A stretch of DNA of 64,000 bases from assembly GCF_055900595.2 (NCBI RefSeq), contig NZ_CM148325.1, one strand, 5' to 3'. Positions 2,631-31,879 of the stretch are shown in pieces. Made by a program: the position numbers and the translations under genes. Every line of letters starts with the position of its first letter. The stretch's first letter is position 1. Below the pieces are notes generated by a model. That model saw only the letters and a program-made list of their open reading frames with translations. It was not told where the DNA came from and did not search any database.

Positions 2631-3308
2631 TTAGTGACGAGCGCGCACCAGCTGGTACTTACGTGTCAGATACTCCACCGGTACGCTCCAGATGTGCACC
2701 AGACGCGAGAACGGGAACAGCAGGAATAACGTCATCCCCAGCACCAGGTGCAGACGGAAGATAAACGCCACACCATCAAGATGTTGAGAAGCGCCACCAT
2801 GGAAGGTCACCACCGACTGCGCCCAGCCAACCAGTTTCATCATCTCGCTACCGTCCATATGCTGGGCGGAGAACGGAATGGTCAGTAGGCCCAGTGCGCA
2901 CTGGATAACGAGTAGCGACAGGATCAGGATGTCCGCCCCAGTAGTCGTTGCTCGTACGCGTGGGCTGGTCAAACGACGCTTCAGCAACAGCACGCCGCCA
3001 ATCAGACACAGCACGCCGCTGGCACCACCAGCAATCATCGCCATTTTCTGTTTCACTTCAATTGGCAACCACGCTTCATACATCCAGTGCGGCGTCAGCA
3101 TACCGAAGAAGTGGCCGACAAAAATCCCCAAAATTCCGATATGGAACAGGTTCGACGCCAGGTTCATCCCTTTGCGATCCAGCATCTGGCTGGATGCCGC
3201 GCGCCAGGTGTACTGCCCGTAGTCATAGCGCAGCCAGCTACCAATCAGGAAGACGGCCCCGGCTATGTACGGGTAGATATCAAAGAAGAACATATTCAGG
3301 AATTGCAT
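2631..3308 (-). CDS. narI: Respiratory nitrate reductase gamma subunit (cytochrome b)
   Basis: 225 aa, multiple hydrophobic helices; last gene of the narGHJI order. Confidence 0.95.
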
Positions 3309-4018
3309 TAGTGCTGTCCTCCGGTGGTGATATTCAGATATTGCGGCGCGACGGCACCGGCAAAGCGACGCTGATGAGCAGTGATTGCTGAATCACCGCA
3401 GCCTTTGTCAGCAAAGAATTTAACCTGCTCTTCTTCCCAGACGGCATCCAGCGCCTGTGGCGTATCGTCGCGCGCTTCATCAGCAATTTTTTCCGCCACT
3501 TTGTCGCTGTCGATAGCGGTATTCGCCAGTTTCAGCAGCAGATCAAACAGCACGGCATAACGGCTTTCACGTTGTTGCAGACGCGCGCTCAGCAACGCCA
3601 GGATCGGCGCGATATCTTTCAAACCTTCCACGGCTTCGCTTTGCGGCAGCTGCGCCAGATACTCCAGATACAGCGGCAGATGATCCGGTAATTCACGACT
3701 GTTCAATTGCAAACCGTGCTGCTCATACTGTGCCAACAAGTCAACCATTGCCTGGCCGCGATCGCGGGATTCACCGTGAACATGCTCAAACAGCAGCAAC
3801 GACGTGGCGCGACCACGGTCGAACAGTTCGCTGTACTGGGCCTGAGCATCCAGCGGATCCAGCGCTGTTAAATCGCGCAGGAAAATGCCCAGCGCATGGG
3901 CATCCTCTTTCGACAGATTTTCCGACGCAGCAATCGCCTCAAACATCTCTTGTTGATGCTGCCATAAGGCAGCATCCGGATATTCCAGGAGACGCGATAC
4001 AATCACGAGTTCGATCAT
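3308..4018 (-). CDS. narJ: Nitrate reductase assembly chaperone
   Basis: 236 aa, overlapping narH and narI ends (translational coupling). Confidence 0.95.
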
Positions 4019-26514: not shown

Positions 26515-27588
<1,074 letters not shown>

Positions 27589-27606
27589 TCGAACCCGGCT
27601 CAAAGA

Positions 27607-27627
27607 CCCGCTGCGGCGGGTTTTTTT
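27607..27627 (+). terminator. Intrinsic terminator after prs
   Basis: CCCGC-TGCG-GCGGG hairpin followed by TTTTTTT. Confidence 0.7.
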
Positions 27628-27712
27628 GTCTGTAATATCCATTTGTATGACCTATGCCTCCTTCACCTGCCATTTAGTTGACAGATGATGCGCTCACGGA
27701 TGAAACATTATT

Positions 27713-29392
27713 GTGAACAAAATATTTTCCTCACATGTGATGCCTTTCCGCGCTCTGATCGACGCTTGCTGGAAAGAAAAATATACTGCCGCACGGTTTA
27801 CCCGTGACCTGATTGCCGGGATAACCGTCGGGATTATTGCTATCCCGCTGGCGATGGCGTTGGCTATTGGTAGTGGTGTGGCACCCCAGTACGGTTTATA
27901 TACCGCAGCTGTTGCGGGGATTGTCATTGCTCTGACGGGTGGGTCACGCTTTAGCGTTTCCGGTCCGACTGCGGCATTTGTGGTAATTCTCTATCCCGTT
28001 TCGCAACAGTTTGGACTGGCAGGACTGCTGGTCGCGACACTCATGTCAGGTGTCTTTTTGATCCTGATGGGGCTGGCACGTTTTGGACGCTTGATTGAAT
28101 ATATTCCGGTTTCCGTGACCTTAGGTTTCACCTCGGGTATCGGGATCACCATCGGTACCATGCAGATTAAAGATTTTCTCGGTCTGCAAATGGCCCATGT
28201 CCCGGAGCATTATCTACAAAAAGTCGGCGCATTATTTATGGCGTTGCCGACCATTAATGTGGGTGATGCTGCCATTGGCATTGTGACGCTTGGCATTCTG
28301 GTTTTCTGGCCGCGTCTGGGCATTCGTTTGCCTGGTCACCTTCCGGCCTTGCTGGCTGGTTGCGCGGTGATGGGAATTGTTAACCTGCTCGGCGGACATG
28401 TTGCTACCATCGGTTCGCAATTCCACTACGTCCTGGCCGATGGTACTCAGGGTAACGGTATTCCGCAACTGCTGCCACAGCTGGTACTGCCGTGGGACCT
28501 GCCTAATTCAGAATTCACGCTAACCTGGGATTCTATTCGCACACTGCTGCCTGCGGCATTCTCAATGGCAATGCTCGGCGCAATCGAATCTCTGCTCTGT
28601 GCCGTGGTACTGGATGGTATGACCGGAACGAAACACAAAGCGAACAGTGAACTGGTTGGACAGGGGCTGGGGAATATTATCGCTCCGTTCTTTGGTGGTA
28701 TTACCGCTACAGCTGCCATCGCGCGTTCTGCCGCTAACGTCCGTGCCGGGGCTACTTCCCCTATCTCGGCGGTGATCCACTCTATTCTGGTTATTCTTGC
28801 CCTGCTGGTACTGGCACCGCTGCTCTCCTGGCTGCCGCTTTCCGCCATGGCGGCCCTGCTGTTGATGGTGGCGTGGAACATGAGTGAAGCGCACAAAGTG
28901 GTCGACTTGCTGCGTCATGCGCCGAAAGATGACATCATCGTCATGCTACTGTGTATGTCATTGACCGTGCTGTTTGATATGGTTATTGCCATCAGCGTGG
29001 GGATCGTGCTGGCATCGCTACTGTTTATGCGTCGTATCGCACGTATGACTCGCCTGGCACCGGTAGTCGTAGACGTTCCAGACGATGTTCTGGTTCTGCG
29101 CGTTATTGGCCCGCTGTTCTTTGCTGCCGCTGAAGGCTTGTTCACGGACCTGGAGTCACGTCTTGAAGGCAAACGGATTGTGATTCTGAAGTGGGATGCC
29201 GTTCCGGTGCTTGATGCTGGTGGCCTTGATGCGTTCCAGCGTTTTGTGAAGCGTCTGCCCGAAGGATGTGAACTGCGCGTGTGTAACGTGGAATTCCAGC
29301 CGCTGCGCACTATGGCTCGCGCAGGGATTCAACCGATCCCGGGACGCCTGGCGTTCTTCCCGAATCGTCGCGCGGCGATGGCGGATTTATAA
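27713..29392 (+). CDS. dauA: SulP-family C4-dicarboxylate transporter with C-terminal STAS domain
   Basis: 559 aa from a GTG start ([20 protein letters not shown]...); polytopic membrane domain plus STAS. Confidence 0.9.
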
Positions 29393-29446
29393 GTACGAAA
29401 TTGACCAGTCAGCGCAAACTGACTGGTCAGCAAACTGCATTATTTG

Positions 29447-29725
29447 TTAGCTATGACGGCGATTATCGCTACGGCGGCAACGTTTGTCATAGTGGCGAAC
29501 CCACCAGTAACGGTCGCACACCTGTTCATGCCCGCCAACACGGGCACCCGCCAGCCAGAGAATGGCACCGACGAAAATACTTAGCACTGCACCATGTGCG
29601 AAATACTGGGGCATATTAAACTGTGGTAACTGGTTGAGGATTGAATACCCCACACCAACTACCATCACCACCAGACCCAACCCCATGAGCACGTTACCGA
29701 GTAACGAAGCGTTTTTGCGTTTCAT
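29447..29725 (-). CDS. ychH: Small inner-membrane protein YchH
   Basis: 92 aa MKRKNASLLGNVLMGLGLVVMVVGVGYSIL...; two TM segments. Confidence 0.8.
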   Translation of the reverse strand: MKRKNASLLGNVLMGLGLVVMVVGVGYSILNQLPQFNMPQYFAHGAVLSIFVGAILWLAGARVGGHEQVCDRYWWVRHYDKRCRRSDNRRHS

Positions 29726-30002
29726 ATGTCACCTCCGGAACTTTCTGGGTTGTAACAGGGAATACCCCTCTTCCTTATGTGTAAAGTATAGACAACACCC
29801 TGTGGGTTATGTGCGGGCGTGATCACAATTACAACCCTTATTTCAACAAAACTTTACAAATAAACGCCTGAACACCTTGATTTTCTAATAGTCCACTTAG
29901 GCAATTATTGCGTTATCTGCATTTGATACGCAGTTTTTTGTCAAGCGGGGCCGCAACCAGTAAACTACGCGCCAGTTATGTACACACTCAGGACAAAAAA
30001 AC

Positions 30003-30587
30003 GTGACGATTAAATTGATTGTCGGCCTGGCGAACCCCGGCGCTGAATACGCCGCAACGCGACATAATGCTGGTGCCTGGTTCGTTGACTTACTGGCAGA
30101 GCGATTGCGCGCTCCGCTGCGCGAAGAGGCTAAATTCTTTGGTTATACTTCGCGAGTCACCCTTGGAGGCGAAGATGTCCGCCTGTTAGTCCCGACTACA
30201 TTTATGAATCTCAGCGGCAAAGCCGTTGCGGCGATGGCCAGTTTTTTCCGCATTAATCCGGACGAGATTCTGGTGGCCCACGACGAACTGGATCTGCCTC
30301 CTGGCGTCGCCAAATTTAAGTTGGGCGGTGGCCATGGTGGTCACAATGGACTGAAAGACATCATCAGTAAATTGGGTAATAACCCTAACTTTCACCGTTT
30401 ACGCATCGGAATCGGTCATCCGGGCGATAAAAATAAAGTTGTCGGTTTTGTGTTAGGCAAACCGCCTGTTAGTGAACAGAAGTTAATTGATGAAGCCATC
30501 GACGAAGCGGCACGTTGTACTGAAATGTGGTTTACAGAGGGCTTGACCAAAGCAACGAACCGATTGCACGCCTTTAAAGCGCAATAA
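30003..30587 (+). CDS. pth: Peptidyl-tRNA hydrolase
   Basis: 194 aa from a GTG start ([27 protein letters not shown]...). Confidence 0.9.
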
Positions 30588-30703
30588 GTCGTTGTCTGCG
30601 GCATTTTTGCCGAGTGCCGTGTATAATAGGCAAAGTTATTTCCATTTCTGCAATCTGTTAGCAATAACAGGTTGATTATTAAGATATTAAGGTGATTTAA
30701 ATC

Positions 30704-31795
30704 ATGGGATTCAAATGCGGTATCGTCGGTTTGCCCAACGTCGGGAAATCTACCCTGTTCAACGCGCTGACCAAAGCCGGTATTGAAGCGGCCAACTTTC
30801 CATTCTGCACCATCGAGCCGAACACAGGCGTCGTACCAATGCCTGACCCTCGCCTGGATCAACTGGCTGAAATCGTAAAACCGCAGCGTACGCTTCCCAC
30901 GACCATGGAATTTGTCGATATCGCCGGTCTGGTAAAAGGCGCATCGAAAGGCGAAGGTCTGGGTAACCAGTTCCTGACCAACATCCGTGAAACCGAAGCG
31001 ATCGGTCACGTTGTTCGCTGCTTTGAAAACGACAACATCATTCACGTTTCCGGCAAAGTTAACCCGGCGGATGATATTGAAGTTATCAACACAGAACTGG
31101 CGCTGGCAGACCTCGACACCTGCGAACGTGCGATTCATCGCGTACAGAAGAAAGCCAAAGGCGGCGATAAAGACGCGAAAGCCGAGCTGGCGGTACTGGA
31201 AAAATGCCTGCCACAGCTGGAAAACGCAGGTATGCTGCGCGCGCTGGATTTAAGCGCTGAAGAGAAAGCGGCTATTCGTTACCTGAGCTTCCTGACGCTG
31301 AAACCAACAATGTACATCGCCAACGTCAACGAAGACGGTTTTGAAAACAACCCGTATCTTGACCAGGTGCGTGAAATCGCGGCGAAAGAAGGTTCTGTTG
31401 TGGTTCCGGTTTGTGCTGCTGTTGAAGCAGACATTGCCGAACTGGACGACGAAGAACGTGACGAGTTTATGCAGGAGCTTGGGCTGGAAGAGCCGGGCCT
31501 GAACCGCGTGATCCGTGCCGGTTATAAGCTGCTGAACCTGCAAACTTACTTCACTGCTGGGGTGAAAGAAGTGCGTGCATGGACCATTCCGGTTGGTGCA
31601 ACCGCGCCGCAGGCCGCTGGCAAAATCCATACTGATTTTGAAAAAGGCTTTATCCGCGCACAAACTATTTCGTTCGAAGATTTCATCACTTACAAAGGTG
31701 AACAAGGCGCGAAAGAAGCAGGCAAAATGCGTGCAGAAGGTAAAGATTACATCGTTAAAGATGGCGATGTAATGAACTTCCTGTTCAACGTCTAA
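30704..31795 (+). CDS. ychF: Ribosome-binding ATPase YchF (Obg family)
   Basis: 363 aa; P-loop GLPNVGKST and a C-terminal TGS domain. Confidence 0.95.
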
Positions 31796-31854
31796 TTAAT
31801 TTGTTGTCTCATGAGGTTTCGCTAAATCTCATGAAGAGCGCAAAAGTATATAAA

Positions 31855-31879
31855 ATCCACGCAATTGCGTGGATTTTTC
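31855..31879 (+). terminator. Intrinsic terminator after ychF
   Basis: ATCCACGC-AATT-GCGTGGAT palindrome followed by TTTTTC; A-run upstream makes it potentially bidirectional. Confidence 0.65.

Follow-up and report, generated by a model that had tools for sequence, protein, structure and literature searches.

The palindrome between dauA and ychH of Escherichia coli as a probable 3'-terminal stem-loop of the ychH mRNA

Rho-dependent transcripts end right after stable stem-loops that carry neither U-rich tails nor upstream A-tracts (Dar and Sorek, 2018, PMC6061677). The sequence downstream of these stem-loops shows a C-over-G bias, and the structures shield the RNA from PNPase and RNase II (Dar and Sorek, 2018). 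Canonical intrinsic terminators combine a G+C-containing stem of at least five pairs and a short loop with a U-tract, taken here as at least five U in 8 nt, and the 3' end follows a few nucleotides after the stem. Bidirectional terminators of convergent gene pairs are symmetric hairpins in short spacers, flanked by A- and U-tracts, and the two transcripts overlap (Ju et al., 2019; Wang et al., 2022, preprint). REP elements are extragenic palindromes that lie between convergent genes and can stabilise the upstream mRNA; they recur many times in a genome and have a common consensus. Of these systems, the palindrome between dauA and ychH is best read as an example of the first. We consider it reasonably likely that this palindrome is the 3'-terminal stem-loop of the ychH mRNA, and that this transcript belongs to the Rho-dependent class, in which polymerase reads through, Rho stops it, the RNA is trimmed, and the hairpin fixes and protects the end.

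The window, meaning the whole stretch of DNA that was analysed (64,000 nt; NCBI RefSeq assembly GCF_055900595.2, contig NZ_CM148325.1), is 100% identical to E. coli strain Z0117EC0005 by megablast. Its genes run in the order prs, dauA, ychH (opposite strand), pth, and ychF. The features of the locus, in window coordinates, are:

29402..29429, minus strand: stem-loop, identified by repeat finder, folding, shuffles, and a stem conserved between diverging flanks
29397..29446, minus strand: ychH 3' UTR, made of a 17-nt spacer, the hairpin, and the 5-nt tail AUUUC; its end is the equivalent of the MG1655 3' end at 1259119
29447..29725, minus strand: ychH coding sequence, 92 aa, stress-induced membrane protein
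27713..29392, plus strand: dauA coding sequence, C4-dicarboxylate transporter, the convergent neighbour
29116..29297, minus strand (ychH-sense read-through RNA): C-over-G-rich stretch (C/G 1.5-1.8 by composition count), a candidate rut site antisense to dauA
29482..29741, plus strand (dauA-sense read-through RNA): C-over-G-rich stretches antisense to ychH, with C/G 1.5-1.7 at 29482-29599 and 1.9-2.3 at 29612-29741; judged by composition, a possible Rho-loading region for dauA read-through

The dauA-ychH spacer is 54 nt long. A repeat finder locates a perfect 11-bp inverted repeat in it (100% complementary, six G-C pairs), formed by 29402-29412 and 29419-29429 around a 6-nt loop at 29413-29418. 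On the plus strand, the repeat reads TGACCAGTCAG-CGCAAA-CTGACTGGTCA, within the local order ...GATTTATAA GTACGAAAT TGACCAGTCAG CGCAAA CTGACTGGTCA GCAAACTGCATTATTTG TTA.... The first-pass annotation had described the same repeat and loop and had recognised the two genes and their convergent orientation. Its coordinates, 29404-29431, are shifted by +2, and the 12 nt that it gave between the dauA stop and the stem are in fact 9 nt (29393-29401), the stop codon TAA lying at 29390-29392. On the other side, 17 nt separate the stem from the ychH stop codon (29447-29449, minus strand). The absence of a clean T-run, which it had also pointed out, is confirmed: the 8 nt beyond the stem contain one T in the dauA sense (GCAAACTG) and four in the ychH sense (ATTTCGTA; three in the K-12 version, ATCTCGTA).

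The repeat is far beyond chance. Three perfect 11-bp inverted repeats with loops of 3-10 nt occur in the 64-kb window, compared with a mean of 0.13 in 100 dinucleotide-preserving shuffles. Another of them, AAAATCCACGC-AATT-GCGTGGATTTT at 31852-31877, follows ychF and is a classic terminator with mapped 3' ends at MG1655 1256636 (Adams et al., 2021, PMC7815308) and 1256632 (TRS, PMC10687069). A further one, CGGATGGCATC-GTTCT-GATGCCATCCG, lies at 40906-40932.

In the ychH-sense RNA, the hairpin is UGACCAGUCAG-UUUGCG-CUGACUGGUCA, and the palindrome also folds in the dauA (plus) sense. The 54-nt spacer folds at -21.3 kcal/mol in the ychH sense (z -4.6) and at -20.6 kcal/mol in the dauA sense (z -4.3). 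The hairpin itself accounts for -18 to -21 kcal/mol, with a robust centroid fold that is stable on both strands. Its flanks in the window are gtacgaaat and gcaaactg. In the ychH sense, the sequence upstream of the stem, GCAGUUUGC, has no A-tract, and the tail is AUUUCGUA in the window and AUCUCGUA in K-12. A consensus terminator scan makes no call at the hairpin; it does pick up the prs terminator and, where ychH starts, a small hairpin. Likewise, an Rfam 15 covariance-model scan of 27000-31000 at E-values up to 10 finds nothing at the hairpin. The scan returned three sub-threshold matches, all at the prs terminator, and these (istR, rsmX, and isrK) were set aside as noise. The prs terminator itself occupies 27602-27625, 86 nt upstream of dauA, and its 3' end at MG1655 1260889 has an intrinsic score of 29.5 (PMC7815308). 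Given its position upstream of dauA, that gene must be expressed by read-through or from its own promoter. Two direct repeats overlap the hairpin. One is GCAAACTG, at 29414-21 and again at 29430-37, and the other is an 81% identical 16-mer with copies at 29398-413 and 29416-431.

Published 3'-end maps place the end of the ychH mRNA directly behind this stem. In their Term-seq data, Adams et al. (2021, eLife, PMC7815308, supplementary file 1) class MG1655 position 1259119 on the plus strand as the 'primary' ychH 3' end. One sheet of the file gives it 4004 reads (LB, OD 0.4) and another gives 1878.6; the sequence context is ...GCTGACCAGTCAGTTTGCGCTGACTGGTCAATCTC|GTAC. MG1655 and window coordinates run in opposite orientations and add up to a constant, so that the MG1655 position equals 1288516 minus the window position. 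On the minus strand of the window, the mapped end therefore falls at 29397, position +5 counted from the last stem pair. The TRS pipeline study, which re-analysed published libraries, gives the same peak at 1259119 (range 1259115-1259125) with p values of 5e-71, 4e-123, and 4e-56 for the ychH terminus (Nat Commun 2023, PMC10687069). A 3' end on the dauA strand is absent from the Adams et al. tables (PMC7815308) and from the accessible part of the TRS tables (PMC10687069); dauA may be too weakly expressed there. The SMRT-Cappable-seq supplements contain neither ychH nor dauA, and a full-text literature search for ychH together with Term-seq returned nothing.

The work of Adams et al. also points to Rho acting beyond the hairpin. 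Supplementary file 2 of Adams et al. lists a Rho termination region at 1259355 (plus strand; score 5.78, p 1.3e-10) (PMC7815308), which corresponds to window 29161; this site is 241 nt downstream of the hairpin and lies antisense to dauA. DirectRNA-seq reads upstream and downstream of this position number 102 and 20 without bicyclomycin and 75 and 85 with it (PMC7815308); the score is region-level evidence, built from low counts in 800-nt windows of steady-state RNA. From +105 to +286 nt, a stretch that includes the Rho peak at +241, the C/G ratio of the ychH-sense read-through RNA is 1.5-1.8. This enrichment is modest; the 90th-95th percentile across the window is 1.53-1.71. Bicyclomycin can also unmask unrelated antisense transcripts. 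ychH-dauA is also among 165 convergent E. coli pairs with overlapping transcripts (ExcludonFinder; NAR 2025, PMC12288877).

These observations can be set against the class described by Dar and Sorek (2018). As in that class, a stable stem-loop lies just upstream of the dominant steady-state 3' end of ychH, the hairpin has no U-rich tail or upstream A-tract, bicyclomycin raises read-through beyond the ychH end, and a mild C-over-G bias follows the hairpin. The locus differs from the class in having three to four U in the tail and a stem whose sequence is unusually conserved between genera. The four features that can be checked here all agree with the class, and the best reading is that the ychH hairpin would serve as the protective 3' stem-loop of a Rho-dependent transcript, blocking exonucleases by analogy with the described cases. 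RNA polymerase transcribing ychH would mostly pass the hairpin, which is not followed by a U-tract. Rho would then load on the dauA antisense RNA, which is untranslated and C-rich, and terminate transcription within ~100-300 nt. The 3'-to-5' exonucleases PNPase and RNase II would shorten the tail and be halted by the 11-12-bp stem, leaving a sharp and stable ychH 3' end 5 nt past the stem. We infer that the ychH end arises by such trimming and not by release at the hairpin. The hairpin probably sets the 3' end of the ychH mRNA and presumably its stability as well, and the palindrome could serve the dauA mRNA likewise. A role as an RNase III substrate was set aside, since typical substrates of that enzyme are longer than a stem of 11-12 bp.

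Conservation within Escherichia is concentrated in the stem. Of 5426 complete E. coli genomes, 5421 contain the 54-nt spacer once. Most of them differ from the window at a single position outside the stem, with G for A at 29399; K-12 thus has the ychH-sense tail AUCUC where the window has AUUUC. Strain HCM-22C-2 carries TGGCCAGTCAG as one arm; the altered pair is G·U when read in the dauA sense and C·A in that of ychH. In strain AST215 (locus L084), an 18-nt tandem duplication lies inside the hairpin, at the overlapping direct repeats, and probably arose by slippage. All 22 stem positions are unchanged in E. albertii, E. whittamii, and two further Escherichia lineages; one of these has a changed loop, and the flanks carry substitutions and indels. 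With the AST215 duplication set aside, the Escherichia alignment is variable in 1 of 22 stem columns, compared with 15 of 26 flank columns (Fisher p 1.3e-4). The ychH-sense tails are U-poor and vary among AUCUCGUA, AUUUCGUA, AUUUUGUA, ACUUCAUA, and AUCUAUUG. Because the tail varies while the stem is fixed, selection acts on the stem and not on a U-tract.

The palindrome shares with REP elements its extragenic position between convergent genes and a possible ability to stabilise upstream mRNA. Unlike REP elements, it is single-copy per genome and unrelated to the GCCGGATG/GCCCGGTG-type consensus. A REP or other mobile repeat was therefore rejected, given that 5421 of the 5426 E. coli genomes have the palindrome at one place each and that its arms have no other close copies in the window.

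Citrobacter reveals which of the two genes the hairpin accompanies. The comparison covered 80 YchH-encoding loci, one genome per species, with the ends of ychH and dauA located in each. In eight Citrobacter genomes, including C. koseri, two C. amalonaticus-like genomes, and C. gillenii, dauA is not adjacent to ychH. In the representative genome (L066), the convergent neighbour is an operon for Rieske protein, cytochrome b, and cytochrome c1. This bc1-type operon takes the place of dauA in several Citrobacter species (L066, 2825-5163); its genes are fragmented in C. koseri NCTC10786 (L011, 2474-4901). An invariant stem core, ACCAG[T/C]CAG...CTGACTGG, is shared by Escherichia and these eight Citrobacter genomes. 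It begins 24-26 nt from a fixed anchor at the ychH stop codon in all 16 sequences examined. The distance from the ychH stop to the stem is always about 20 nt, also in genomes where ychH has another neighbour than dauA, while loops and flanks have diverged. Invariant columns make up 16 of 18 in the core stem, compared with 2 of 34 in the flanks (p 2e-9). The loops of Escherichia and Citrobacter differ in sequence and length, with 6 to 8 nt between the invariant halves, and different C-G pairs lengthen the apical stem. Within the window and 85 fetched loci (~400 kb), the motif is confined to this position, with one copy per locus.

Since the stem also follows the ychH stop beside the bc1 operon, these alignments indicate that the hairpin belongs to ychH and that it lies near dauA in E. 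coli just because the spacer there is so short. The first-pass annotation had tied the hairpin to dauA, and this link does not hold. It had also proposed a weak bidirectional terminator or an RNA-stability hairpin. That proposal stands for the ychH strand, where the 3' end falls at stem +5. Given the Rho-sensitive read-through, the hairpin is not an efficient stand-alone stop. For the dauA strand, where the tail has a single U and the Adams et al. tables and the accessible TRS tables list no 3' end, a terminator role is no more than a possibility. Term-seq or similar 3'-end data had been set beforehand as the evidence that could overturn the hairpin idea, and the published ychH end leaves it in place. 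The conservation analysis that the annotation also suggested shows a stem that is conserved from Escherichia to Citrobacter and follows ychH.

Pair changes in the stem are few. HCM-22C-2 and six Citrobacter sequences carry single-side transitions that give C·A in the ychH sense and G·U in the opposite sense. Retention of G·U only opposite to the ychH sense is the reverse of what selection on the ychH strand alone would predict. A covariation test used the 16 sequences from Escherichia and Citrobacter. Paired cells make up 93%; seven of the 12 pairs never vary, double changes are limited to two basal pairs, and the covariation score was reached by 18 of 500 shuffles. Covariation support is weak because there is too little variation to prove a structure. 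A hairpin of Citrobacter R56, Awk4, and NCU1, TTACCGGTCTGC...GCGGACCGGTAA, was considered as a compensated homologue of the E. coli stem and rejected. C. amalonaticus S646 (L012) has a 376-nt ychH-dauA spacer (2780-3155) with two different hairpins, one of the CCAGTCAG type adjoining ychH and a different one of the TTACCGG type (TTACCGGTTTG...) adjoining dauA. Because this genome carries both types, two different hairpins are the better reading, and the pair was not counted as covariation. Between the two hairpins of this spacer lies a 108-aa ORF without a Pfam match.

Beyond these two genera, a stable hairpin is found in every short ychH-dauA spacer of the family that was examined. Enterobacter, Lelliottia, Huaxiibacter, Buttiauxella, Cedecea, and Shimwellia have classic terminators with A- and T-runs, often bidirectional (e.g., AAAAAAAACGGTTCTCAGAGAACCGTTTTT). 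Other canonical examples at the orthologous position are AAAAAAACGACTCC-GAAA-GGAGTCGTT and GAAACGACTCC...GGAGTCGTTTTTTTTT, and the latter follows ychH where a MerR/TipAS regulator gene separates ychH from dauA. Salmonella enterica subsp. diarizonae and subsp. arizonae and C. sedlakii (L015, L068, and L008) carry the REP-like GCCCGGTGGCG...CGCTTACCGGGCC instead of the E. coli hairpin. A 3'-end-forming element thus occupies this position throughout the family. Its kinds differ, and the version without a U-tract is that of Escherichia and Citrobacter. The spacer measures ~1.16 kb in a set of Enterobacter, Lelliottia, Kosakonia, and Atlantibacter loci (L032, L024, L026-L029, L031, L033, L038, L044, L047, and L048). 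In L032, the sole large-spacer locus examined, it contains a 352-aa MerR/TipAS-type regulator gene (2896-3954). A palindromic TTGACCCTCACGTAACGTAAGG lies just past the ychH terminator in the large-spacer loci. Two loci have unexpected labels: L004 ('MAG: Actinomycetes bacterium') is Enterobacteriaceae sequence with a spacer identical to that of E. coli K-12, and L042 ('Chryseobacterium sp. 18061') is Enterobacteriaceae sequence that is Citrobacter-like. Both are likely to reflect contamination or mislabelling in public assemblies.

How the mapped ychH end arises can be explained in other ways. The hairpin could be a weak, non-canonical intrinsic terminator that directly releases a fraction of the transcripts at +5 to +8, with Rho mopping up the read-through. 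As the main source of the ychH end we regard this as unlikely, although it overlaps with the account preferred here and may coexist with it, the difference being which process makes most of the mapped ends. The locus does resemble a canonical intrinsic terminator in its G+C-containing stem of at least five pairs, its short loop, its place just past a stop codon, and a 3' end a few nucleotides after the stem. Such a sharp end at +5, with three to four U in the tail, is compatible with weak intrinsic termination too. The tail after this long stem, AUUUC in the window and AUCUC in K-12, is an imperfect U-containing one, and U-richer tails exist in MOD1-EC7003 (AUUUUGUA) and in L065 and L067 (GGUUUUCAG). 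Moreover, relatives have true ychH intrinsic terminators at the same place, with textbook examples in Enterobacter, Buttiauxella, Cedecea, Lelliottia, and Kluyvera, and only about 20% of reads lie downstream without bicyclomycin. On the other hand, the 8 nt past the stem contain four U in the window and three in K-12 (one in the dauA sense), below the five that define a U-tract; the consensus scan makes no call; and the stem is conserved while the tail is not. The published bicyclomycin data also speak against it: ychH read-through is Rho-sensitive (PMC7815308) and downstream reads at least equal upstream reads when Rho is inhibited (85 vs 75). With Rho blocked, the RNA runs far past the hairpin, which is therefore not an efficient stand-alone terminator. 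The preferred account may include some weak intrinsic termination in addition.

Two further explanations turn on the symmetry and the sequence of the palindrome. Collision-assisted bidirectional termination, in which the hairpin positions head-on polymerases so that both transcripts end in the 54-nt spacer without U-tracts, is suggested by the palindrome, by the short spacer, and by the preprint of Wang et al. (2022). The likeness to bidirectional terminators of convergent pairs (Ju et al., 2019; Wang et al., 2022) is real: the hairpin is symmetric and folds equally on both strands, the convergent spacer is very short, and the transcripts overlap. Single-side stem variants also keep G·U pairing in the sense opposite to ychH. 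We nevertheless consider collision very unlikely, as it requires simultaneous strong expression of both genes and a 3' end is documented on the ychH strand only, the dauA-strand end appearing neither in the Adams et al. (2021) tables nor in the accessible part of the TRS tables. The hairpin also lacks the flanking A- and U-tracts of the classic bidirectional terminators of relatives, such as AAAAAAAACGGTTC...GAACCGTTTTT in Buttiauxella, and it stays beside ychH when the convergent partner changes, tracking that gene and not the pair. The core ACCAGYCAG / CTGACTGG might instead be bound by a protein, as duplex DNA or as an RNA stem, with the hairpin secondary. What speaks for such a site is that sequence, and not just pairing, is conserved from Escherichia to Citrobacter, with essentially no compensatory double changes in the 9-bp core between a scrambled loop and two scrambled flanks. 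Half spacing of 6 to 8 nt and differing apical C-G pairs fit an RNA hairpin and not a dimeric DNA-binding site, and one motif per locus, once per E. coli genome, downstream of both genes and without an Rfam match, makes this the most improbable of the explanations. We know of no operator consensus that matches the stem core.

The preferred reading, a trimmed and hairpin-protected end of a Rho-dependent ychH transcript, would explain how a sharp mRNA end arises from a 54-nt convergent spacer without a U-tract terminator. The ychH 3' end itself is already known from public tables. What is added is small: the palindrome is assigned to ychH, it proves to be conserved into Citrobacter, and a likely class is given for it. 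The hairpin is an ordinary feature. It provides one more documented and conserved example of U-tail-less hairpins capping Rho-dependent transcripts, of value mostly for annotation. It also illustrates the turnover of 3'-end elements at one orthologous position in Enterobacteriaceae, from U-less hairpin to classic terminator to REP-like element. A mildly odd point is that the stem sequence is invariant between genera, with almost no compensatory changes. The 9-bp core stays about 20 nt away from the ychH stop even as loop, flanks, and neighbour change, which raises the possibility that the stem is recognised by sequence beyond its shape. It could then be a site for a specific RNA-binding protein or RNase that tunes ychH stability under stress, or a DNA site, a suggestion from the alignments that we rate as quite improbable. 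Either way, its role would go beyond that of a simple barrier to exonucleases. If stem conservation did reflect specific recognition, it could point to post-transcriptional control of ychH, a poorly understood stress gene.

Other signals occur on the ychH transcript. A promoter-like site, ATGACA-17-GATAAT (10 of 12 matches; window 29490-29462, minus strand), lies within the last ychH codons and faces the hairpin. If active, it would give an RNA of ~60 nt ending at the mapped 3' end; the Cappable-seq TSS tables contain no matching coordinates for its transcription start. A second 3' end on the ychH strand maps to MG1655 1258823 (window 29693, minus strand), 32 nt into the ychH ORF (Adams et al., 2021, PMC7815308). 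It has 9115 reads, more than the primary end, and a Rho score of 0.29 (PMC7815308), and it coincides with a small hairpin, CGTTACTCGGTAACG, at window 29692-29706. On the plus strand, this hairpin is followed by AAGCGTTTTT and is terminator-like by the scan. Read-through in the dauA sense could be stopped there, where ychH has its far end.
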